In this document: in pieces, positions 7,161 to 61,353 of the stretch
Position numbering within the stretch: position 1 is the first letter of the stretch
Layout: the number at the start of each line of letters is the position of its first letter
Virus record (IMG/VR): IMGVR_UViG_3300022723_000184
Span: 128,001-192,000 of that record
Origin: a virus
Lineage: Duplodnaviria > Caudoviricetes
DNA: 64,000 nucleotides
Direction: 5' to 3' (one strand)
Translations under genes and position numbers: made by a program
Notes under the pieces: model-generated
Seen by the model: the letters and a program-made list of their open reading frames with translations, nothing else
Told to the model about the DNA's origin: nothing
The model's database searches: none

Positions 7161-8048
7161 TTGGCCAAACGCAAGTTCACGATGCACGAGCAGATGATCT
7201 TCGACGTAATCCGCAAACAGGCGGGCACGCTGTCGAAGGCGGCGTTGGAAGGCGTGATGAACGCCGTCGACGCCAACGCCTCCGAGATCAAGATCACGCT
7301 CGACGAGGGCAGGATGACCCTGTCCGACGACGGTAAGGGGTTCCGGTCCAAGAAGGAGATCGAAGACTACTTCGAGACCTTCGGCCGACCTCACACAGAG
7401 CAAGAGCAGAAGGTCTTCGGCAAGTTCCGTATGGGTCGCGGGCAGATGTTCGCGTTCGGCAGGAACCTGTGGGAGACCGGACGATTCCGGATGGACGTCG
7501 ACGTCAAGGACAAGGGCCTGGATTACGACCTGAAGGAGCTGTCCGAGAAGGAGCGGGCGCCCGGTTGCTCGATCACGATCGAGCTGTACGACCAGTTGCT
7601 GCCGAGTGACGTCGACAAGACGGTCAGGGACCTGGAGCTGTGGTGCAAGTGGGCGCCGCTCCGTGTGGTGCTCAATGACCGGGAGATCAGTTCGGATCCC
7701 GCTGCCCAGGAGTGGCAGTACGAGACGGACGAGGCCTACGTCAGTCTGACGGGTGTCGGCGGTCTGACGATCTACAACCAGGGCGTGTTCGTCATGGACA
7801 TTCCGGCCTACCGGTACGGGACGGGCGGCGAGGTCGTGACCAAGATGGGTCAGGATCTTGACGTCAACTTCGCCCGCAACGACATCCTGGCTTCGTGCCC
7901 GATCTGGAAGAAGGTCTCGCCCTTCATCGACCAGCGGGCCACGGAGAAGAACACCAAGAAGCGGGCCCTGGACGACGGCGCCCGCCAGAGGCTGGCCCAC
8001 CAGTTGAAGGCCGGCGAAGAGATCGAGTCTCATCTTCTAAACCGATGA
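7161..8048 (+). pseudogene. GHKL (HATPase_c/MORC-like) ATPase, 3' end replaced by an inverted CRISPR repeat
   Basis: EGVMNAVDA, DDGKGF, GKFRMGRGQ boxes; terminal residues SHLLNR and the stop codon come from the repeat at 8027-8062. Confidence 0.7.
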
Positions 8049-8062
8049 GCAGGTATTAAGAT
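8027..8062 (-). CRISPR. solitary CRISPR repeat, 35/36 identical to the array consensus
   Basis: minus strand reads ATCTTAATACCTGCTCATCGGTTTAGAAGATGAGAC. Confidence 0.95.
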
Positions 8063-10243: not shown

Positions 10244-11906
10244 GGCTAAGGCACCTCGTAGTCTGAACATCCATGTTCCCTGGGCCGAGGTCGCCGAGGC
10301 TCTGGAGTTGCCCCTGAAGAGCCAGACACTCCCCGCTACGACCAGATGCCCATTGTGCGGCGGACGCCGCTTACGTATCTATCAGGATAGCACAAGCGGG
10401 GGGTCATGGCACTACTGCGGTGATTGTAAATCCCGCGGTGACATGATAACACTGGCCGGTTCCGTGTGGAAAACGGACGTCTACGAGACGCTCGACAGGC
10501 TGAGAGATGCTGGCATCGATCTGCCCGATACGCAGTTAGGGTCGCCCCAGGTCGTCAGTTACGCCGATCGACAGAAGCGACAGGCCACGATCAGCGAACT
10601 TTGGAAGCTGGCGCAGCGTCAATTGTGTGCCGGCCGGATGGGGGGAGTCGCTGACCTGCAGCGGAAGTACTATCTTCGGTTCAAAGGCGACCGTGAGCGG
10701 GTGGAGGACGGGCCGGCCAAGCTATACGGGGCCCTGACCGTCAAGCAGGCGGAGCGGGCGTTGTACAGCCCGGGGTCGTTGAACAAGTACGGGCGGACGA
10801 AGAACGCGCACCTCGCCTTCAAGGGCCGCAACTGGGGCGATGTCCTGGTCATGCCGTTCTACGACATGCCCCAGCGGATCTGTGCCCTCAGCTTTATGGG
10901 GCGCCGCGGCAATCCGAAGACCGACCAGGTGTTTTACACGACGCACACCAGCGCGATCGAGGCGGGCCTCGGCGGGCTGCCCTCGATCGAACTGGCTCAT
11001 GACCCGGACACGGTGATTGCCGTAGACGACTGGCTGTTCTACTTGCGGGCCCAGATCCGCCACTTCCGCAGCTCGTACATCCCGATGCCCATGGTCGTAT
11101 GGCGGGACGAGGGCAAGATCAGGACCCAGCGGGCGTGGAACGCGGTCAGTGACAAGAACATCGTGTTCTGGGGGTTTAACTTGGACGCCCGGATGATCCG
11201 GCACGCGATGGAGACCGACGGCATGATCTCGCTGCTCGGGCCCAAGGAGTTTGTCGACGACCAATCGGTCGGCCACTTCCTGCGGGACCACCGGGGCACC
11301 GACCTGCCCCGCGACGTCATCCGGGCCGCGAGGCCGTGGCGCAAGGCTCTGGCCCACTGGCTCTCGTGCAATAGGCCGGAGCACGGCCACAATCTGTTCA
11401 AGGCCCTCGAAGAGCTGGGCGAGGACGTCAGCCACATCCTGAACCAGATCGGCAAGGGCCCGACGACGATCGCCCGACCGGTCATGCGGAGGTCGGCCGA
11501 GGTCGGCCCCTACACGATCTCCGAGCGAGGCGGGTGCTGGTACCACGACAGGTACAGGACCCGGCCCGAGCTGATCATGGATGCGGTTCTCAGGGTGACC
11601 CATGCGATCAACGACCTGCGGTCGGGTGACCTATGGTACCGCGGGTTCATCGAGTACCGCGGGCAGCGGATCTATTTTCTGGAGCCGGCCAAGACCATGG
11701 AGGGCCGGACCCTGTTCTGGATCCGGGACAAGGTCAGCGCCGCGGGTCTCGGGCTGCTGCGGTACAGCTCGATCTGGTCACGGGGTGGGAGGCACAATCT
11801 GTACCAGGTGGCCGTGACCTTCGACGAACCGCGGTTTGTGAATGAAGACCTGGCCTTGCACGTGCAGGAGATGCGTGAAGCCGGGCACCTGATCGATCCG
11901 ATCTAG
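10242..11906 (+). CDS. protein with N-terminal primase-type zinc-binding domain
   Basis: CPLC...HYCGDCKSRGDMI motif; no clear TOPRIM motif seen. Confidence 0.55.
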   Translation: MAKAPRSLNIHVPWAEVAEALELPLKSQTLPATTRCPLCGGRRLRIYQDSTSGGSWHYCGDCKSRGDMITLAGSVWKTDVYETLDRLRDAGIDLPDTQLGSPQVVSYADRQKRQATISELWKLAQRQLCAGRMGGVADLQRKYYLRFKGDRERVEDGPAKLYGALTVKQAERALYSPGSLNKYGRTKNAHLAFKGRNWGDVLVMPFYDMPQRICALSFMGRRGNPKTDQVFYTTHTSAIEAGLGGLPSIELAHDPDTVIAVDDWLFYLRAQIRHFRSSYIPMPMVVWRDEGKIRTQRAWNAVSDKNIVFWGFNLDARMIRHAMETDGMISLLGPKEFVDDQSVGHFLRDHRGTDLPRDVIRAARPWRKALAHWLSCNRPEHGHNLFKALEELGEDVSHILNQIGKGPTTIARPVMRRSAEVGPYTISERGGCWYHDRYRTRPELIMDAVLRVTHAINDLRSGDLWYRGFIEYRGQRIYFLEPAKTMEGRTLFWIRDKVSAAGLGLLRYSSIWSRGGRHNLYQVAVTFDEPRFVNEDLALHVQEMREAGHLIDPI

Positions 11907-14860
11907 TCGAGATCCCAGTTCGGGTTCTCGGGATTCAACGCATCCATGATCGCACGGTCGATGCCGATGTTTTCGATCTCGGCAAGGTTCGGCCAGTTGC
12001 CAGTCGCCTGGTACAGTGTGATCAGGCCGAGGTTGGTGGCCTGGGCGAAGTCGTCGGACAGCGCAGGATCCCGGATGATCGTGTAGATGTCCTTACCCAG
12101 GCGGCTGTCGACCTTCTCCTCGACCAGGGCCAGGAACTCCCGGATGAGGCCGGGGTTCTCGGCGTCCTTGTAATCGTCTTGAAAGAACCGGAGCCAGCCG
12201 GTCTTGATCTGTTGGCAGGTGAGCTGCAGGGACCGGGGCTTGTCGACCAGGTAGTAGTCGCGGGGGTGGCGGTCCGTCCGGGGCTTGGGAACGATGATGC
12301 CGCCGACGGCCGCACGCTGCAGCTGGCAGGCGATGATCCGGTTGTAGGGGAAGCCGGCCTGATTGATGAACGTCTCCCGCAAGGAGCCGGCACCCGTGTA
12401 GTCGTGAGCCATCAGGTGACACTTGAACCGGGTGAGAAGGGCAATGGCCAGCCGGGCTTCCCGGGCATGGTCGTGGGGCGTCAGCGAACGCAGGGCGTAC
12501 AGGCAGTCCACCCGACCATCGGGCATCATGCCGAGGACCGAGTAGGTCGTGAAACTGATGCCCTGTTCGCCGCCGCCGCCCCAGTCCACGCCCAAACAGC
12601 GGAGGGTGTACTCGCCGATCTGTTTCTGGGCCTCTTCGACCTCGTTCTTCCACGGAAGGCACGCGGCCTTCATCAGGTCGGTGAGCGTCACGAGCTTCGA
12701 GCCGGTGTCGTAGCTCTCGCCGCAGACCTCGTTGTAGAACACATGGATCGGGGTGTTGCCCCGGCCCTCACGCTTGCCGAGAAGGACGTCCCACTTCTCG
12801 GCGTTGCCGTAGTGCATCGGCATGATGATCTGCGGCACGTGGTACCCGGCGAACGTCCAACGCTTTTCCGGGTGGGCATGAACCCAACGGCCGTGCAGCT
12901 TCGGGTGGATGGGCCTCCGGCACTTGGCGCAGATTACGGCCGGATTGTTGAAGGAGATGTCGTCACGCAACGGGCCGATCATCTTGTCGAGATCGTGGGT
13001 CATCGCCGGTACGTTATGGTAATTGCAGCGGTGACATTTGATGACCCATTCGGCCATCGAACTGTCTCGCCAAAGAGTTTCGATCGTGTTTTCGAGGGTC
13101 TTTGGAGTGCCCGCAAACGACTCGATGCCTCCGTACTTCGATCCGGACATCGTTTCCCGGATGATCGGGATGAAGTCTTTGTCGAGGTCCTGCACTTCGT
13201 CATAACAATTATGTGTCAGCACACCTTCAGCGAAGAAGCAGTGTTCTCGTTGCGTGTTGATGTCCCAAACCGGTTTGAGGTCAAGACGTTTTACGTGGAC
13301 TACGTGTACAAACGATGTCTCACTTTTCGACACTCTGGCCCGCAGACGGGATTCGATGCCGCAATCTGATGCTGCTTCGCTTCTATCGTTTTCCCGCACA
13401 TCGAACAGGCAATTTCGGGGCGAGGTTTCGCGAGCTTGTAAGACATCATCTTCGGGACGAACGCGGATACGTTTTCGGACAGTTTCCTGGAGTCCGCGGC
13501 CGGCAGGTAAACTAAGTGATAGAGCTTTCCTGTACGAGAGTTTATGGACGGGTGACGTTTGGCCGACAACAATTCTCGTCGCTGTAGGTCGGACGCGATG
13601 AGGTCCACTTCCCTTTCGGTGAACCCTTGCGTGTTGAAGTGGATAGTACTTCTTTGTCGTGCCCCGTCGTCCATGAGCTAGTAAGCGATTCCTCGCCAGT
13701 CGAGTCGTTCTAGCCAATCCTGACTGACGCGTTTCTTTCCTTCCGGACAGGTCAGCGCATACAGCGGAGCCAGCTCCACGGCGCTTACGGTGTTGAACAC
13801 GCAAGATACTTTGCCCCAGCCTTTGTTTTCTTTCACTCTTGGTGGTGTGGACACGTACTCGCCTAAGACTGCTGCCTTGTGTCGGCAGTACGCTTCTCGA
13901 GACCCGCCGTGGCGGAAGCATACCCGCGGGTTTGCTGTGTTGCTCGATTTTGACAGGCAAGCATCCCCGAGCAAACAGCCGAGTAGAAGTTGTTCTTGCT
14001 CGCAGGTCAACGGAGGCACCTTCTTCGGTTTTCTCCCCGGGCGAGAAAAGGGTCGACAAGCGGATCCATTCGCCCTCGGCGGTTTTGAACCGAGAGTCTT
14101 TTGTACACCTAAGGACCGAGCCATTGGAAAACCGGACTTCGTAGATCTGCTGGACGCCTTGGAAGATTTTTTCGGTAACGACATCGTCGACAACCTTTCC
14201 GTCGTTGTTGACGGCCGGCACGATGTCCCCAGTTCTGGCTTCGTCGATCCGGATACCGCCGCGGTTCCTGGTTTCGATTATTGTATCGCCTACGAAGCAG
14301 TTCTGGTCAGCGGAAATACCACGAGTACGTTCGGCGTCGAGGAACGCGAACGAGAAGATCATCTGGCTGTTGTTGCGGAAGGTACGTTGCAGCACAGAGC
14401 CAATCGTGTTCGTGCCGGTGAACACGTTGACCACGGGCGACTGCTCGATGAACGGTCGGATGTAGTTCTGGCTGAATCGCCGGATCATTTCAAACAAGGG
14501 CGTGACGTACAGCGTCGAGAAGTACGGCAGGCAGTTCGACTGCACGACGCCGCGACTTGCCAGGCTCGTCGACTTGGAGACTTGACGGCCTGTTTTGAGC
14601 AGCGACTTGCGGGCCATGCGAGTCCGGAAGAACGGCTCGAACGGGAAGTAGTTGTCGAGGCTGTACGGTTCGCCCTTGAGGTTGAGTAGCAGCGGGAGCA
14701 GGGGTTTCAAGGACGCCACCCTGCTTTTGCGCATGAGGTGGGCGGCCACCGTAAGTCGGCGGGTGTTGGCGTCCTCGAACCCCGATAGTTTTAGGCCGTC
14801 AAGGATCTTGGGCGAGACGTCGAGGCCCATTTCCTTGATGACGTCGGAGACAACTGACAT
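11903..14860 (-). CDS. terL: terminase large subunit with intein
   Basis: Walker A LKTGRQVSKS, Walker B split as ADQN|CYDEVQD, nuclease motif GVDWGGG, C-terminal DDFAQA. Confidence 0.88.
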   Translation of the reverse strand: MSVVSDVIKEMGLDVSPKILDGLKLSGFEDANTRRLTVAAHLMRKSRVASLKPLLPLLLNLKGEPYSLDNYFPFEPFFRTRMARKSLLKTGRQVSKSTSLASRGVVQSNCLPYFSTLYVTPLFEMIRRFSQNYIRPFIEQSPVVNVFTGTNTIGSVLQRTFRNNSQMIFSFAFLDAERTRGISADQNCFVGDTIIETRNRGGIRIDEARTGDIVPAVNNDGKVVDDVVTEKIFQGVQQIYEVRFSNGSVLRCTKDSRFKTAEGEWIRLSTLFSPGEKTEEGASVDLRARTTSTRLFARGCLPVKIEQHSKPAGMLPPRRVSRSVLPTQGSSLRRVRVHTTKSERKQRLGQSILRVQHRKRRGAGSAVCADLSGRKETRQSGLARTTRLARNRLLAHGRRGTTKKYYPLQHARVHRKGSGPHRVRPTATRIVVGQTSPVHKLSYRKALSLSLPAGRGLQETVRKRIRVRPEDDVLQARETSPRNCLFDVRENDRSEAASDCGIESRLRARVSKSETSFVHVVHVKRLDLKPVWDINTQREHCFFAEGVLTHNCYDEVQDLDKDFIPIIRETMSGSKYGGIESFAGTPKTLENTIETLWRDSSMAEWVIKCHRCNYHNVPAMTHDLDKMIGPLRDDISFNNPAVICAKCRRPIHPKLHGRWVHAHPEKRWTFAGYHVPQIIMPMHYGNAEKWDVLLGKREGRGNTPIHVFYNEVCGESYDTGSKLVTLTDLMKAACLPWKNEVEEAQKQIGEYTLRCLGVDWGGGGEQGISFTTYSVLGMMPDGRVDCLYALRSLTPHDHAREARLAIALLTRFKCHLMAHDYTGAGSLRETFINQAGFPYNRIIACQLQRAAVGGIIVPKPRTDRHPRDYYLVDKPRSLQLTCQQIKTGWLRFFQDDYKDAENPGLIREFLALVEEKVDSRLGKDIYTIIRDPALSDDFAQATNLGLITLYQATGNWPNLAEIENIGIDRAIMDALNPENPNWDLD
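13208..14299 (-). mobile_element. intein (364 aa) in terminase
   Basis: starts CFVGDT, ends VWDI...FAEGVLTHN followed by Cys+1. Confidence 0.9.
13300..14040 (-). pseudogene. LAGLIDADG homing endonuclease, out of frame with the intein and carrying a nonsense codon
   Basis: LLGCLLGDA motif, then GIAY*LMDDG (TAG at 13678-13680), then a CxxC zinc ribbon; start approximate. Confidence 0.75.
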
Positions 14861-16098: not shown

Positions 16099-16112
16099 AA
16101 AAAGTACTTTTT
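16099..16112. promoter_or_regulatory. palindromic motif AAAAAGTACTTTTT
   Basis: exact copy, directly before the RBS of 16125. Confidence 0.7.
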
Positions 16113-21315: not shown

Positions 21316-21539
21316 GCCATTTTGTGGCTTTGGTGTTCACAGACCGTGAGCCCGACCAGCACAGGTTGCAGGAAAGCCGGTCGAGTTGGAGTTCGACGGC
21401 CACGGCGGCCCCGGGTCGGCCCTCGGGGGCTGGCGGATCCTGACCGAGGTCCTCTGATGACCCTGTTCTCGGAGCGGGCCACCCGAAGGGCCTACTGGGC
21501 CCTGGGTGGTCCGGAGAACAACCGCTGCTGGCGGCCGAG

Positions 21540-21575
21540 TCGCCAACAGGCTGCTCATCGACAAGAGGATGAGAC
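21540..21575 (+). CRISPR. degenerate solitary repeat upstream of cas12m
   Basis: CTGCTCATCG-(7 nt)-GATGAGAC vs repeat CTGCTCATCG-(8 nt)-GATGAGAC; 6-bp stem intact; ends 20 nt before the ATG. Confidence 0.7.
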
Positions 21576-21595: not shown

Positions 21596-23365
21596 ATGGG
21601 ATTCAATAAGGACCCAGAGGCCCGCTGTGTGGTTTACCAGTACGGCGGCAAACATCCGACGGAAAACGAAGACGAAGCGATCAACCAGCTCGCCAAGGCG
21701 AACCGTTTTCGGAACCGGCTCGTTGAGTTGGAGCTACAACGACGTGAAGAATACCACGCTGCGTTCTCGGGTTACGGAGACCTGGCGGAGCCGTCAAATC
21801 AGCTTGAGACGCTCAACGAGCAGCTGACCGCTGCGGTGGCAGAACTTAAGGCGTGGAGACAATTGAACGGCACTCGAAGTCAACACCCGACGCTAACCCC
21901 GCAGATCGTTTCGCTACGGGCTCAGGCTCGCCAGCTACGGACACAGATCAAGTCGATCAAGGAAGCGGCCAAAGGCGATCCTACGGTGCAGGCGGCAATC
22001 GAAAAAGCAAACCAGCAGCACCGAGATCAGACCAAAGCTGCGTACGGCGCTGTAAGAGAATCGAACCCGGAGGCCGAGGACGCCAGAGACCGGCATGGGT
22101 TGTTCTGGGGAACGGCCCTCCTAGTTCAAAGGGCAGCGACACAGTTCCAGAAGGGCCCTCCCCCGAGGTACAAACGTTTCGACGGGACGGGAACTATCGG
22201 CGTGCAGCTGCAGAACGGGATGTCTGTGGAGGATCTGTTCACTCCGGGCGGCAGCGTCTGGATTGACCCCGTTCCTCCGGAGGCCTGGGACCCGCAGACG
22301 CCGAGAGGTCAAAGGCGAAAACTCGCAAGAACGATGCTACACATGCGGATCGGCGGGAAGCCGCAGGCCTGGGTGATTCTAAAGCTACCTGTCACCGTGC
22401 ACAGACCGCTGCCTGCAGGAAAACTTATCAAGTGGGTCACGGTCACTCGGCGTAAGTACGGTTCACAGGCGCGGTGGTATGTAAACGTCACGACGGATAT
22501 CAGGTCTGGTGGCACGCTTCACGATGATGTTGCGGCTGCCGGATTTGTGGGTGTCGACCTGGGTTTCAGGTTGTTCAAGCCCGCAGAAAGCAGCTCAGGC
22601 AAGCGATCGCTCCGAGTGGCTGTATGGGCCGGAGATGACGGGGAGACAGGCGAACTTCGCCTCGACGCGAGGTTTATGTCCTACATCTCAAAGGCCGACG
22701 GTTTGAGGTCGATCCGGGACAAGCGGCTTGATCAGATCAGAGCGGCGCTGCTTCCGTTGTGTGACGAGGCGGGTACGCCGGAGTGGTGGAAAGACGACAC
22801 TCAACACATGGCCAAATGGAGGTCTCCTCGAAAGCTGTATCACTTGCTCCACAAGTGGAAAGACAACAGGTGGGATGGCGACAAAACGCTGTTCGATCTG
22901 TTGGTTAAGTGGGTAGTTCAGGACCGTCACCTCCACGTGTGGGAAGCCAACAATCGCCGAAAAGTAGCGGCTCGTCGCCTGGACATGTACCGGAACCTGG
23001 CGGCCTCTTTGAGGCGCAAGTACGCGGTTATCGGGATCGAAGACATCGATTGGCGGATCTGGAGCAAGTTGGCCCTGCCCGAAGAAGAGGAGACCAAGTC
23101 AAAGAAGTTCCGTGTTCAAAAGAAACATGCGGCGGTCGGTCTGCTTGCAGAGACGCTGTCGAATTGCGGGGCACAGGTTGTACGTTTGGATCCCGCTTAC
23201 ACGACGAAGCGGTGCAACGCCTGCGGCAAGATCACCGAATTTGACGCTGACCGGCACCTGCGACATACGTGCGAACATTGCCATGCGGAGTGGGACCAAG
23301 ACTACAATGCGGCAAAGAACCTGCAAGACATGGCGAGCGGCAACGCCGTAACGCAAACCGCGTAG
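21596..23365 (+). CDS. cas12m: type V CRISPR effector, Cas12m (V-U1/V-M)-like, 589 aa
   Basis: RuvC-I GVDLG, RuvC-II IGIED, zinc finger CNAC/CEHC, RuvC-III DQDYNAA; RFDGTGTIGVQLQ and WRSPR motifs recalled from Cas12m; array 137 bp downstream. Confidence 0.85.
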   Translation: MGFNKDPEARCVVYQYGGKHPTENEDEAINQLAKANRFRNRLVELELQRREEYHAAFSGYGDLAEPSNQLETLNEQLTAAVAELKAWRQLNGTRSQHPTLTPQIVSLRAQARQLRTQIKSIKEAAKGDPTVQAAIEKANQQHRDQTKAAYGAVRESNPEAEDARDRHGLFWGTALLVQRAATQFQKGPPPRYKRFDGTGTIGVQLQNGMSVEDLFTPGGSVWIDPVPPEAWDPQTPRGQRRKLARTMLHMRIGGKPQAWVILKLPVTVHRPLPAGKLIKWVTVTRRKYGSQARWYVNVTTDIRSGGTLHDDVAAAGFVGVDLGFRLFKPAESSSGKRSLRVAVWAGDDGETGELRLDARFMSYISKADGLRSIRDKRLDQIRAALLPLCDEAGTPEWWKDDTQHMAKWRSPRKLYHLLHKWKDNRWDGDKTLFDLLVKWVVQDRHLHVWEANNRRKVAARRLDMYRNLAASLRRKYAVIGIEDIDWRIWSKLALPEEEETKSKKFRVQKKHAAVGLLAETLSNCGAQVVRLDPAYTTKRCNACGKITEFDADRHLRHTCEHCHAEWDQDYNAAKNLQDMASGNAVTQTA

Positions 23366-23489
23366 CCGATCGATCTGTAGTGTGTACAAGTAGTTGTGGC
23401 GGCTACGGAGGGCCGCTGCACTTCTGTCAAGGGTGCCGACGATCGAACCGCTCGAAAACGGCCTGATAACCATGTACGCACGTGTAGGT

Positions 23490-23495
23490 TATAAT
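23490..23495 (+). promoter_or_regulatory. -10 box of the array leader
   Basis: perfect TATAAT 7 nt before repeat 1; no consensus -35. Confidence 0.6.
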
Positions 23496-23502
23496 GCCGC
23501 GG

Positions 23503-24247
23503 ATCGTAATACCTGCTCATCGGTTTAGAAGATGAGACGCGGCATTGATTGCCTTCTTGAGTTGCTGCTCCAACATCGTAATACCTGCTCATCGGTTTAG
23601 AAGATGAGACATCGCCGCATCGCTGGAAGCGGGCGTGGCGTCGGCGGATCGTAATACCTGCTCATCGGTTTAGAAGATGAGACCTTTCTCTGTGTCCGAG
23701 ATAACGGGGTCACTAATGTCATCGTAATACCTGCTCATCGGTTTGGAAGATGAGACAAGCATCCGAGCAGCCGCTACAAGGACAAGATCGGCATCGTAAT
23801 ACCTGCTCATCGGTTTAGAAGATGAGACTAGTCGGGCAATTGCTCGAACGGCACAGAGATATCGTCATCGTAATACCTGCTCATCGGTTTAGAAGATGAG
23901 ACGCTTACCGGTGGCCGAGGCCAAGGCGCGATGGAGAACATCGTAATACCTGCTCATCGGTTTAGAAGATGAGACACGGTGGATCCGGTCGAGCGGCTGA
24001 TCCTTCACATCATCGTAATACCTGCTCATCGGTTTAGAAGATGAGACCCGGTGATCGACGCGGTCCTCGAGAACGCCGAGGACATCGTAATACCTGCTCA
24101 TCGGTTTAGAAGATGAGACAAGTGGATCAGGTTCTTCTCATCGTAATACCTGCTCATTGGTTTAGAAGATGAGACGCGGACTGCCCCGAGATGCGGCGCC
24201 GGCTGTGGGTAATCGTAATACCTGCTCATCGGTTTGGAAGATGAGAC
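23503..24247 (+). CRISPR. CRISPR array, 11 x 36-bp repeats and 10 spacers (36-38 nt, one of 20 nt)
   Basis: repeat ATCGTAATACCTGCTCATCGGTTTAGAAGATGAGAC with CTCATC/GATGAG stem; single-base variants in repeats 4, 10 and 11. Confidence 0.99.
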
Positions 24248-29868: not shown

Positions 29869-30993
29869 ATGGCTAGAAAACCTGTGGCGGTGATGTATGC
29901 CGACGGCCACCTGGCTGACAGGGCATGGTCCTGGCGCCCTATCGAGGGCGACTCGTACCACTCCCTGCACCAGATCATCACCGCAGCCCGCAAACGGGAG
30001 GTGCCGGTCATCGGGGCCGGCGACCTCATCGATAAGCATCGGAACACCGCTCGGCCGATTCACATGCTCCACCGGGAGCTGGATCGGCTGGCGGACAAAG
30101 GCCTGGAGTTCTTTTTTGTCCAAGGTCAACATGAGTTTGATGACGTGCCATGGTTCTCTGCGAACTCGCAGGCCTGCCACATCCACAAGAAAACGATCGA
30201 CGTCGGTCCTTTTAAGGTCTACGGCCTCGACTACCAGCCGGCCGGCCGGCTCCAACAGGAGCTTGACCAGATCCCGGCCGACACTGACATCTTGGTGGCT
30301 CACCAGGTGTGGGATCTGTTCATGGGAGACATTGCCGCCCCGCAGGGAGGCATCCACGACGTGCCCGTGGTCAGCACTGTGTTCACCGGGGACTTTCACG
30401 AGTTCAAAGAGGTCGACACCCGGGGCAAGGACGGCCAGGAGGTTCACGTGGTGAGCCCGGGGTCCGTGTGCATGCAGTCCATCGACGAACCACCCAAAAA
30501 GTACTTTTTGATTTTGCACGACGACGGGACCTTCGAGCGGCGCCGCCTAAATACTCGGCCTATGCTCGATGCTTCGATGTTGCTGACGCAGGACAACATG
30601 GACCACTTCGCCGAGACCATCCAGGGCGAGCTGGAGAAGATGACCGAGGAGGCAGCCGGGTTCAAGATGCCGGAGGAGGTCTGCAAGCCGCTGCTACGGG
30701 TGACGTACTCCTACCGGCTCAAGGACGTCAAACGGCGTGTCATGAATCTGGTGGGCGAGCGGGCCCACATCTTCTGGAAGGAGCTGCCGCCGGAGAAGCC
30801 GGAGGCGCAGGAACGTCGGAAGAAGCGGGTGGTGGGCCAGAAGCACGCCACTACCCTGGACACCAAGCTGGGCCCCTACCTGGAGGCCACGGACCAGAAG
30901 CGGCTGTTGGGGCCGTGTCAGAGGCTGCTGCAGGCCAACGATGTTGGGGCCGAGCTGCAACGTATGAGAGCGGAGGCCCTCGGTGAAGGATGA
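29869..30993 (+). CDS. Mre11/SbcD-like metallophosphoesterase nuclease
   Basis: ADGHL, GDLID, QGQHE, AHQ, GDFH, SPGS motifs; Rad50-like gene nearby. Confidence 0.85.
   Translation: MARKPVAVMYADGHLADRAWSWRPIEGDSYHSLHQIITAARKREVPVIGAGDLIDKHRNTARPIHMLHRELDRLADKGLEFFFVQGQHEFDDVPWFSANSQACHIHKKTIDVGPFKVYGLDYQPAGRLQQELDQIPADTDILVAHQVWDLFMGDIAAPQGGIHDVPVVSTVFTGDFHEFKEVDTRGKDGQEVHVVSPGSVCMQSIDEPPKKYFLILHDDGTFERRRLNTRPMLDASMLLTQDNMDHFAETIQGELEKMTEEAAGFKMPEEVCKPLLRVTYSYRLKDVKRRVMNLVGERAHIFWKELPPEKPEAQERRKKRVVGQKHATTLDTKLGPYLEATDQKRLLGPCQRLLQANDVGAELQRMRAEALGEG
30496..30509. promoter_or_regulatory. AAAAAGTACTTTTT palindrome inside the nuclease CDS
   Basis: exact copy, written with codons atypical for this genome. 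Confidence 0.5.
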
Positions 30994-46581: not shown

Positions 46582-46617
46582 GTCGTAATGTCCGCTCACC
46601 GGCTTGGAAGATGAGAC
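46582..46617 (+). CRISPR. solitary degenerate CRISPR repeat upstream of the recA-like gene
   Basis: GTCGTAATGTCCGCTCACCGGCTTGGAAGATGAGAC, 30/36 to repeats 4 and 11; 11 nt before ATG 46629. Confidence 0.88.
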
Positions 46618-48158: not shown

Positions 48159-48721
48159 GCGATCCCTTTGCTGACCTCAACAAGAATCGGAGCCAGGAAC
48201 AGATCCGGGCTGCGAACGAGGCTCAGTGGGAGGAGGCTGTCGTCAAGCGGACGCTTAAAGAGTTCAGTCTTGGTCCGTCAACCCGACGAGAGATGGCCAA
48301 GATCTGGCACGATGAGCACGGTTCCTTCGCGTTGAAGTTCTCGGTCTTTAACGCTATGTTCGCCGACTTCCCGTTCGTGCTGGGCACCACCAGGCTGGAC
48401 GGGAAGCACGTACATCAGGACCCCAAGGCTACCGAGCCCGCAAGGTTCGAGCGTTTCTCACAGGTCCCCTTTGTCGAGGCTTACCGAGAGTTCTACCAGG
48501 ACGTCTATTGCGAGGCCAATCTGCGTAAGGTGGGTCTGGTCTTTCCCCGCAAAGGCTTCCGCTACGGCATGGTGATCCACAACGACGACTCCGAGGACTA
48601 CTGGTCCTCAGGCCTGTGCTGGGTTTACAAAGCGAAGCAAGGCGACCGGCTGTACATTCAGCCGTTCAGCTCGCTACTCGAAGGAATCAAGAAGAGCCGC
48701 ACATGGCGGCCCGAGACCTAA
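48155..48721 (+). CDS. hypothetical protein
   Basis: GTGA coupling. Confidence 0.65.
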   Translation: MSDPFADLNKNRSQEQIRAANEAQWEEAVVKRTLKEFSLGPSTRREMAKIWHDEHGSFALKFSVFNAMFADFPFVLGTTRLDGKHVHQDPKATEPARFERFSQVPFVEAYREFYQDVYCEANLRKVGLVFPRKGFRYGMVIHNDDSEDYWSSGLCWVYKAKQGDRLYIQPFSSLLEGIKKSRTWRPET

Positions 48722-48738
48722 AAAGTACTTTTTAGGTC
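48715..48738. promoter_or_regulatory. 24-bp perfect palindrome containing AAAAAGTACTTTTT
   Basis: GACCTAAAAAGTACTTTTTAGGTC. Confidence 0.75.
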
Positions 48739-57023: not shown

Positions 57024-57327
57024 GGACTACAACAACCTGGTGGCGGGAAAGGTCGTCAAGAGGGACGGCGTTGAGATCGCTCTCCAGGACATCGGCTTTG
57101 CCAAGATGCGTTACGGCATCGACGCTGCCGAACAGTTCGCGAGCACGGAAACCACGCGGTTCCAGACGATCGGCATCGACCACGGTGCTCCGGATGGCGA
57201 AAGGGGCGGCCGGATGGTCGCGTGCCCCTGCGGCCAGGTCACGGGGATCGATCGACTGCACGCGCTGAACATGATCAACGGTCAGACCGTGACGTGTCCG
57301 GCTTGCGGCAAGACCGGCAGCATCTAA
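56998..57327 (+). CDS. hypothetical protein with zinc ribbon
   Basis: CPCG and CPAC. Confidence 0.6.
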   Translation: MTKLSLTAEDYNNLVAGKVVKRDGVEIALQDIGFAKMRYGIDAAEQFASTETTRFQTIGIDHGAPDGERGGRMVACPCGQVTGIDRLHALNMINGQTVTCPACGKTGSI

Positions 57328-57339
57328 AAAGTACTTTTT
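57326..57339. promoter_or_regulatory. AAAAAGTACTTTTT palindrome
   Basis: exact copy; 20-bp context ATCTAAAAAGTACTTTTTGA identical to 16095-16114. Confidence 0.7.
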
Positions 57340-61113: not shown

Positions 61114-61353
61114 CGGCTCAAAACGCGTCAAAATACATGCAGGCAACTTAGCCTGCTCAATCAGGACCCCGGAAGGCTCCGTCGGGCATTTCTGCTCGGC
61201 GGGGTCTTTTTCTTTTCACATCCATGGAACAGACCCAGTACCAGATGAGCCGACCTTCGGGTCACCTGAGACGGGACCGGTCTGTTCCCTGGATCTGAAC
61301 CACGTGGCGGCCGGAGCCGCCGAAACAAGACACCTCTCAAGTAGGAGAACGTC

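Follow-up and report, generated by a model that had tools for sequence, protein, structure and literature searches.

The DNA analysed here, a stretch of 64,000 nucleotides hereafter called the window, belongs to a 202-kb jumbo phage that encodes a large terminase, PolA, a primase and a UvsX-like protein, and whose terminase is matched, among the 12 of 108 records listed, by those of Vibrio phages and of Salmonella phage Arash (27-32% identity). The window contains a cas12m gene with a CRISPR array directly 3' of it on the same strand; Cas1 (PF01867) was not found in the 202-kb virus record. The features of this locus, in window coordinates, are the following.

21539..21575, plus strand: worn repeat copy in the 5' leader of cas12m, in which the CTCATC/GATGAG stem and the 3' AC are kept
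21596..23365, plus strand: cas12m, type V-M effector, an ORF of 589 aa identified by sequence and fold matches
22400..22405, plus strand: H269-R270, crRNA 3'-end recognition pair, aligned with His269/Arg270 of Cas12m2 ('vhr' on 'vhr', 8hio)
22556..22558, plus strand: D321 of RuvC motif I (GVDLG), on H317 of Cas12m2 and D316 of 23vw_A; D in 143 of 163 homologues
23039..23041, plus strand: E482 of RuvC motif II (IGIED), on D485 of Cas12m2 and E469 of 23vw_A; E in 140 of 163
23213..23281, plus strand: CCCC zinc finger of the TNB domain (C540, C543, C559, C562), from conservation and PF07282
23300..23302, plus strand: D569 of RuvC motif III (DQDYNAA), codon GAC, on D579 of Cas12m2 and D560 of 23vw_A; D in 162 of 163
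23366..23502, plus strand: leader that separates cas12m from the array; its TATAAT box (23490-23495) is 7 nt upstream of the first repeat
23503..24247, plus strand: CRISPR array of 11 repeats of 36 nt (ATCGTAATACCTGCTCATCGGTTTAGAAGATGAGAC) and 10 spacers

The 589-aa ORF is confirmed as a full-length type V-M (formerly V-U1) Cas12m, and the family assignment made in the initial annotation is borne out both by homology to characterised Cas12m proteins over the whole length and by the fold. A phmmer search of the PDB returned as best match chain 23vw_A, 'CRISPR-associated DNA-binding protein Cas12m' (E 5.9e-67, aligned over residues 14-578 without large indels), followed by Cas12m2 (8hio/8hhl; E 1.5e-26), UnCas12m4a (23vu; E 9e-22) and GoCas12m (8pm4; E 2.5e-19). 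We take 23vw_A to be TfCas12m of Thermoanaerobacterium fracticalcis (QNB45423.1; D306/E459/D550) because the two sequences, 577 and 567 aa long respectively, are separated by a constant offset of +10 at the three triad residues; no paper describing entry 23vw was found. With this assignment, the best solved match has in common with the phage protein a D-E-D triad, a WDQDYNAAKNL motif and the HR pair, and is the effector of a single-effector V-M locus with a crRNA as the only guide; however, only about one third of the residues are identical, and TfCas12m is bacterial, not phage-borne. The AlphaFold2 model of the phage protein (pLDDT 93.5, pTM 0.89), with long helices at residues 25-55, 64-91, 100-125 and 129-154, displays the bilobed Cas12m fold (WED, REC1, coiled-coil REC2, RuvC and zinc-finger TNB). 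Its top Foldseek matches are Cas12m2 (8hhl, TM 0.76) and GoCas12m (8pm4, TM 0.77), and the next best are Cas12f structures (TM at most 0.41). Fold and domain order are those of GoCas12m and of Cas12m2 from Mycolicibacterium mucogenicum (MmCas12m2; 8hhl/8hio), at 22-23% identity in the structural alignment.

The three motifs from which a canonical RuvC site had been proposed, GVDLG (aa 319-323, nt 22550-22564), IGIED (aa 479-483, nt 23030-23044) and DQDYNAA (aa 567-573, nt 23294-23314), indeed lie in this one ORF, all between 22540 and 23330. In the AlphaFold2 model D321 is within a beta strand (317-327), E482 ends a strand (478-482) and D569 starts a helix (568-580), and this strand, strand-end and helix-start layout is the usual placement of three acidic residues in RNase H/RuvC folds. 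Since whole-protein alignment puts D321, E482 and D569 on H317, D485 and D579 of MmCas12m2, which are the RuvC triad positions by cryo-EM (PMC10442227), the comparison of sequences confirms these residues as the predicted catalytic positions by homology rather than as chance motifs, in keeping with the original proposal. The zinc-finger cysteines C540, C543, C559 and C562 are found in 158, 163, 163 and 161 of the 163 homologues, respectively, and the HR pair is similarly constant (H in 159, R in 160 of 163); in Cas12m2 this pair, located in the WED domain, recognises the 3' end of the crRNA repeat (PMC10442227). The phage protein is thus D-E-D and has none of the non-canonical triads of the Cas12m type members (H-D-D, N-D-D, HEK), in contrast to the H-D-D triads of MmCas12m2 and GoCas12m (H322/D497/D590). 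This state does not bar it from the Cas12m family, because the published clades 3 and 4 are D-E-D (PMC10442227) and four D-E-D members have been characterised as Cas12m (PMC11013384). The published work also agrees with the initial annotation in assigning an H-D-D site, and DNA binding without cutting, to the Mycolicibacterium enzyme (PMC10442227), and justifies its suspicion that D-E-D members were already known, as such clades were described in 2022 and four orthologues have since been assayed (PMC11013384).

Among the nearest homologues, which share about 35% overall identity, the D-E-D triad is found in 139 of 163 (85%), and it is also present in 33 of the 42 IMG/VR viral Cas12m loci; these loci were retrieved with a profile built from a 10-row alignment, the search of viral contigs with the phage protein as single query having given no match. 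On the family tree, from which MsCas12m and TfCas12m are absent as they fall outside the representatives used, 24 of 161 proteins have another triad, and at least 15 changes of triad state are needed. Because D-E-D prevails in both sets and the state has changed so many times, the phage protein represents the majority state and not a special intermediate; the idea that it stands between TnpB and a dead Cas12m is therefore weak, the non-canonical triads being scattered among D-E-D proteins. The frequent replacement of the triad among close relatives, together with the retention of 13-repeat arrays by two viral DND variants, indicates that the family is able to do without a canonical RuvC site.

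The spacers of the phage array comprise nine of 36-38 nt and one of 20 nt. Its repeat (ATCGTAATACCTGCTCATCGGTTTAGAAGATGAGAC) folds into a 6-bp stem that encloses a 9-nt loop and is followed by a 3' AC. This layout is the same as that of the crRNA of the H-D-D Cas12m2 (36-nt repeat, 6-bp stem, 3' AC; PMC10442227) and is also that of GoCas12m. Solitary copies of the repeat with a conserved fold, nine to ten in number, are dispersed over the 202-kb genome, several of them preceded by a TATAAT-type box similar to that of the leader; a full sigma-70 promoter was not found in the promoter scan. In six solitary copies G:C replaces A:U at positions 28 and 15 counted from the 3' end of the repeat, positions which match a first-stem pair of the PmCas12m crRNA (preprint 10.64898/2026.03.26.714355), and in one copy the main stem itself is altered by compensatory changes. 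Three immediately precede an ATG with its Shine-Dalgarno sequence. The worn copy at 21539..21575 is in the cas12m leader, with an A-run, AAGGA and, at 21 nt, the ATG downstream of it; it folds into the 6-bp stem plus AC at -12.3 kcal/mol (z -2.4). No anti-repeat was found near the cas12m locus; on the reverse strand the window has a single copy, a solitary repeat that is complete and lies 15 kb away, at 8027-8062. A comparison of the 10 spacers and the nine 'guides' following solitary repeats with the genome of the phage itself gave short chance matches apart from one guide; the latter, after the repeat at genome position 124139, matches 189125-189153 of the genome (28/29), but this is part of a longer paralogous intergenic region and not a clean protospacer. 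The array had no match in GenBank phages (distant mode), two spacers used as exact patterns had none in IMG/VR, and Rfam gave no match. The repeat pattern was absent from IMG/VR and from the metagenome contigs searched, sets from which the record of the window itself may have been excluded. The first 22 nt of spacer 8 occur in 24 GTDB genomes, but the flanks there are unrelated and the other 14 nt show 6-12 mismatches; these hits were judged to be due to chance in GC-rich coding sequence.

We consider it probable that the phage Cas12m is an RNA-guided binder which silences its targets without cutting them, as part of an adaptation-free V-M module consisting of the effector gene, the leader and the 11-repeat array. 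This binding without cutting is proposed for the phage protein because the D-E-D relatives assayed bind DNA but do not cleave it. Six of eight Cas12m variants showed PAM-dependent DNA binding, and none of the D-E-D orthologues, four in number (Ms, Ap, Tf and the IMG/VR-derived Un), cleaved dsDNA (Bigelyte 2024, PMC11013384). The conserved HR pair, the conserved G...stem...AC arrangement of the repeat and the lack of Cas1 in the 202-kb record are in line with this reading. In the same study TfCas12m interfered with a plasmid only when the target was at the origin (PMC11013384). By analogy with these relatives, Cas12m itself would most likely process the array transcript into crRNAs of about 50-56 nt, whose repeat-derived handle would be the 6-bp stem ending in AC, and the guided protein would bind PAM-flanked dsDNA and block transcription or replication of the target without cleavage. 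D321, E482 and D569 have probably been retained because they bind Mg2+ and keep the displaced non-target strand in place within the RuvC pocket, a role played in Cas12m2 by the H-D-D site. The integrity of the nuclease site is therefore real but ordinary, an intact D-E-D triad being the normal state in this branch of Cas12m. Nevertheless, 85% retention is strong conservation for a supposedly non-catalytic site, and it weighs against the protein being a pure binder, as does its limited similarity to TfCas12m, with which it has about one third of its residues in common.

A rival reading is a working RuvC nuclease or nickase, in which the two-metal D-E-D site would cut the displaced strand or both strands and so destroy competitor or host DNA. 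In its favour, the protein has lost neither a catalytic residue nor a cysteine of the CCCC zinc finger, the triad is kept in 139 of 163 homologues whose overall identity is about 35%, and Omura et al. expressly allowed for DNA hydrolysis by members of clades 3 and 4 (PMC10442227). Moreover, all assays of D-E-D members have so far been carried out outside phage-infected-cell conditions, and three of the four orthologues were assayed solely in cell-free extract, at a single temperature and on a single kind of substrate (PMC11013384). On the other hand, the four D-E-D orthologues without dsDNA cleavage include the presumed closest solved relative, TfCas12m, and one from a viral contig; purified MsCas12m cleaves neither DNA nor RNA in cis or in trans and thus lacks collateral activity (PMC11013384), restoration of DED in the HDD site of Cas12m2 does not bring back cutting (PMC10442227), and the nearest relatives have undergone at least 15 replacements of the triad. 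We therefore regard a cutting or nicking function, as first suggested for this protein, as unsupported and unlikely. A variant of it, quite improbable in our view, is that RuvC catalysis has been kept as strand nicking or slow cleavage and acts together with cassettes made of a promoter and a single repeat, guided by their own flanks, in a TnpB-style homing or exclusion directed against related phages that lack the cassettes. That the ORF is itself a transposon-type TnpB or a Cas12f/Cas12n nuclease lying beside an array by chance can practically be dismissed. The NCBIfam model 'guided_TnpB' and the Pfam family Cas12f1-like_TNB (PF07282, aa 518-576) do match the C-terminal part, but the former (NF040570), with a cut-off of 100 bits, scores 50.5 and is confined to residues 452-577, the sequence match to Cas12f and TnpB structures is limited to the TNB zinc finger (E ~4e-6; Cas12f, aa 523-576), and the TM scores of these structures normalised to the query are 0.32-0.41, against 0.76-0.77 for Cas12m. 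In addition, TnpB proteins are about 400 aa long and devoid of REC2, whereas the phage protein is 589 aa long, contains a coiled-coil insertion and has a CRISPR array directly 3' of its gene; the full-length Cas12m alignment and the fold refute a TnpB, Cas12f or Cas12n identity. The phmmer alignment with AsCas12f places A551 of the phage protein under the Arg of the 'NRIGQ' stretch of the AsCas12f TNB domain, in a column that is mostly A or Q and in which R is outside the eight commonest residues of the family. Cleavage by Cas12f would require an Arg of this region, a lead that is given no weight in the present argument.

The dispersed repeats suggest a further role, namely that Cas12m would mainly handle the phage's own RNAs or genes through them, by autoregulation or by processing or occluding ribosome-binding sites, the triad being either irrelevant or used for trimming RNA. 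The number of fold-conserved copies, the pairing-preserving exchanges in their stems and the position of three of them just ahead of a translation start (Shine-Dalgarno sequence plus ATG), and of one in the leader of cas12m itself, all speak in favour of such a function. However, the intact 11-repeat array with its diverse 36-38-nt spacers points to an ordinary use of guides, RNA targeting or mRNA binding is not known for any Cas12m, and MsCas12m and GoCas12m left RNA uncut (PMC11013384). As the main function of the protein this role is possible but rather doubtful; it could nonetheless coexist with DNA silencing.

The D-E-D triad of Cas12m has already been published, structurally solved and biochemically tested, and the phage protein is a further divergent, phage-borne example of it. 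The puzzle concerns the subfamily as a whole: about 85% of the nearest homologues hold a perfect two-metal site, yet the tested D-E-D members all fail to cut. The selective reason for this retention may be metal-mediated anchoring of the strand or another activity, and a phage D-E-D Cas12m surrounded by cognate solitary repeats is a reasonable candidate for probing why the triad persists.

V-M systems are enriched on plasmids and some are found on prophages (PMC11656645), and several virus-associated relatives resemble the present one. UnCas12m (IMG/VR scaffold Ga0104756_100012943; D304/E457/D548) and MvCas12m of myxophage MV-1 (D305/E463/D555; preprint 10.64898/2026.09.14.751636) are both D-E-D and encoded beside an array without adaptation genes; their lengths are 583 and 610 aa, and both come from other viruses and are distinct from the present protein, with which they are compared here by description. 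The lack of dsDNA cleavage by UnCas12m was recorded in the cell-free assay used for all eight variants (PMC11013384). In the 197-kb phage record of virus Rctr197k (KX853510.1), the product of Rctr197k_108, annotated as 'similar to transposase', is a Cas12m homologue (33% identity, 98% coverage) with the D-E-D triad, the HR pair and the CCCC finger, and its gene adjoins an annotated CRISPR region of 1.5 kb; the repeat sequence is unlike ATCGTAATACCTGCTCATCGGTTTAGAAGATGAGAC, and Rctr197k is not among the 12 of 108 terminase matches of the carrier phage that were listed. The nearest homologue, with 47% identity and a sister position in the tree (support 100), is a D-E-D protein (P0002) encoded at locus L009 on JGI contig Ga0309935_100041, which also carries phage-like small genes on the same strand. 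The array that accompanies it has 10 repeats, whose sequence (GTATCAATGCTAGCTCATCAGCTTGAAAGGTGAGAC) is related to that of the phage repeat. No solitary repeats were seen in the 21.7 kb read of this contig, and its locus has a GC content of 38%, as against 62.5% here.

The three RuvC motifs that the initial annotation had noticed in a Cas12m-like protein at 22540-23330, namely GVDLG (aa 319-323), IGIED (aa 479-483) and DQDYNAA (aa 567-573), do lie there, within a single ORF that is followed directly by a leader and a CRISPR array:

21596-23365, plus strand: cas12m, ORF of 589 aa
directly after cas12m: leader of 137 nt between gene and array
23503-24247: CRISPR array, 11 repeats of 36 nt and 10 spacers (nine of 36-38 nt, one of 20 nt)

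When all PDB chains were searched with phmmer, aa 14-578 of the protein matched chain 23vw_A, a 'CRISPR-associated DNA-binding protein Cas12m' (E 5.9e-67), followed by Cas12m2 (8hhl/8hio; 1.5e-26), UnCas12m4a (23vu; 9e-22) and GoCas12m (8pm4; 2.5e-19); matches to Cas12f, TnpB and Fanzor were confined to its C-terminal zinc finger. Residue counts along these alignments put D321, E482 and D569 opposite H317, D485 and D579 of Cas12m2, the RuvC triad positions of its cryo-EM structure (PMC10442227); they are thus the catalytic columns. UnCas12m4a, a second D-E-D structure, has IDLGFR, IGVENF and DRDTNAARNI at these columns. In the AlphaFold2 model, built with 92 homologues as input (mean pLDDT 93.5, pTM 0.89), D321 lies within a strand, E482 at the end of one, and D569 where a helix begins. 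Foldseek matched the model best to the full R-loop complex of Cas12m2 (TM 0.76) and to GoCas12m (TM 0.77), followed by Cas12f structures (TM at most 0.41, normalised to the query). About one residue in three is shared with each characterised Cas12m; within the D-E-D part of the family, the protein is new and fairly divergent.

The crRNA side of the locus is as expected for type V-M. The repeat forms a hairpin with a 6-bp stem (CTCATC/GATGAG) and a 9-nt loop, with AC after the stem and a G directly 5' of it; the Cas12m2 handle has a non-canonical G:A pair, a stem of 6 bp and, as the last nucleotide of the repeat, a C read by His269 and Arg270 (Omura et al., PMC10442227). The phage protein has H269-R270 at the aligned position; of 163 homologues, 159 retain the His and 160 the Arg.

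The alignment of these 163 sequences combined the best 150 matches of a HMMER search run exhaustively over 1.84 billion representatives (3560 matches, 1654 below 1e-30) with those of a word-index search. D-E-D is the majority state of the subfamily (139/163), the other 24 sequences having NDD, NGD, HDD, HGD, DND, NED and similar triads. On an unrooted FastTree phylogeny of 161 of the 163 sequences, from which the three triad columns had been taken out, the D-E-D/non-D-E-D state changes at least 15 times, versus 21-24 in the first five label shuffles, and the nearest neighbours of non-canonical members are mostly D-E-D. The scattered non-D-E-D triads are most simply explained by repeated losses, since repeated regain of all three residues is implausible. 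D-E-D is probably also the ancestral state, and the suggestion of an evolutionary intermediate is therefore not a useful label for this protein.

Members with a D-E-D triad were, as the initial annotation had suspected, already known. In the division by triad of Wu et al. 2022, as given by Omura et al. (PMC10442227), the family comprises four clades, with DED, DND or NED in clade 4. Four of the eight variants chosen by Bigelyte et al. 2024 (PMC11013384) are D-E-D: MsCas12m (D274/E429/D518), ApCas12m (D353/E516/D602), UnCas12m (D304/E457/D548; from an IMG/VR scaffold) and TfCas12m (D306/E459/D550). Chain 23vw_A has 577 residues and its triad at 316/469/560, each number being 10 higher than in TfCas12m; from this constant offset we infer that it is TfCas12m, which would be the closest solved structure to the query. 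A literature search found no paper describing PDB 23vw.

Whether such a protein cuts or nicks DNA, as had been proposed, has to be weighed against these precedents. Omura et al. left DNA cutting by clades 3 and 4 as a possibility (PMC10442227), and 85% of the subfamily keeps a perfect two-metal site, so that residual or conditional activity is conceivable. However, an adapter-ligation assay detected dsDNA cleavage in none of the eight variants, the four D-E-D ones included, while six showed PAM-dependent DNA binding; purified MsCas12m and GoCas12m left target DNA, target RNA and collateral substrates uncut, MsCas12m D274A retained pre-crRNA processing, and TfCas12m gave plasmid interference only with a guide aimed at the origin (PMC11013384). 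Moreover, conversion of HDD to DED in Cas12m2 did not restore cleavage (PMC10442227). We thus find cutting or nicking unsupported and quite improbable here. By analogy, the mechanism with most support is PAM-dependent binding of dsDNA under crRNA guidance, which would block transcription or replication of the target. Metal-mediated contact with the displaced strand, demonstrated for the H-D-D site of Cas12m2 (PMC10442227), is probably the reason why the acidic triad is retained. Given the tested members and the failed rescue, cleavage seems to have been lost before the triad decayed.

The nearest homologue, also D-E-D, pairs with the query on the tree (support 100; 47% identity) and lies on the 87-kb JGI contig Ga0309935_100041, in a locus of 38% GC with small same-strand genes and an array of 10 copies of a related repeat, the last degenerate. 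Phage carriage of Cas12m is not rare. In IMG/VR, a pattern-limited scan located relatives at 42 loci, many of them on 100-210 kb contigs; 33 are D-E-D, and a crude detector found runs of at least three regularly spaced repeats at 19, in most cases shortly after the gene. Arrays of 13 repeats accompany two DND variants. V-M systems are enriched on plasmids and found on some prophages (2024 review, PMC11656645), and a 2026 preprint terms the D-E-D MvCas12m of a myxophage the first phage Cas12m (10.64898/2026.09.14.751636). That claim looks too strong beside the IMG/VR scaffold of UnCas12m (Bigelyte et al.) and phage Rctr197k (KX853510.1, 110803-114219), whose D-E-D homologue, with no annotation beyond 'similar to transposase', adjoins an annotated 1.5-kb CRISPR region. 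The Rctr197k record is older than the preprint's claim.

Neither the phage's own genome nor GenBank phages yielded a protospacer; the same holds for IMG/VR, searched with two spacers, and for GTDB genomes, searched with one, whose matches were judged to be chance. The repeat also occurs in nine to ten solitary copies scattered across the phage genome, and a degenerate copy precedes cas12m:

window 8027-8062, minus strand: solitary repeat
window 46582-46617, plus strand: solitary repeat
genome 5222, 7620, 46773, 53583, 72751, 124139 and 125944: solitary repeats
window 21539-21575, plus strand: degenerate copy in the cas12m 5' leader (GTCGCCAACAGGCTGCTCATCGACAAGAGGATGAGAC), then an A-run, AAGGA and ATG

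A TATAAT/TATACT-like box lies 7-9 nt before most of the solitary copies, as one does in the array leader. In six copies, A:U has changed to G:C between positions 28 and 15 from the repeat 3' end, two positions that match a first-stem pair of PmCas12m crRNA (preprint 10.64898/2026.03.26.714355); in one, the main stem shows compensatory changes. Copies on the minus strand adjoin the 3' ends of plus-strand genes, and those on the plus strand immediately precede a Shine-Dalgarno sequence and ATG. The leader copy could let Cas12m bind its own message. The 'guide' after the repeat at genome 124139 (genome 124103-124138) recurs with 28/29 identity in a second intergenic region, at genome 189125-189153 (window 61125-61153). 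We rejected this as a clean spacer-protospacer pair, because the likeness runs on at both sides (GTGAAAAGAAAAA..., TTATTTAGGT); the two look like paralogous regulatory regions.

The record (201,946 bp; ~90% complete by CheckV), of which the window covers positions 128001-192000, is that of a jumbo phage, as genes in the window specify a large terminase, a family-A DNA polymerase that includes a UDG domain, primases, an SbcC-like ATPase and a UvsX/RecA-like protein; Cas1 (PF01867) was not found across the whole record. The GC content of cas12m is 0.579 against a genome mean of 0.625, and its GC3 is 0.673 against a mean of 0.84 for phage genes of at least 300 aa, which, with the 38%-GC locus of its nearest relative, weakly suggests horizontal acquisition from a lower-GC source. 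Known terminases align with about half of the large-terminase ORF (11903-14860, minus strand, 985 aa), in two separate pieces; an intein or other insertion may be present. In this 62.5%-GC genome, an AT-rich palindrome is probably a phage promoter or operator; its ~14 copies lie mostly just upstream of gene starts, and three adjoin solitary repeats:

window 16100-16111, 30497-30508, 48721-48732 and 57327-57338, and ~10 further genome sites: palindrome AAAAAGTACTTTTT
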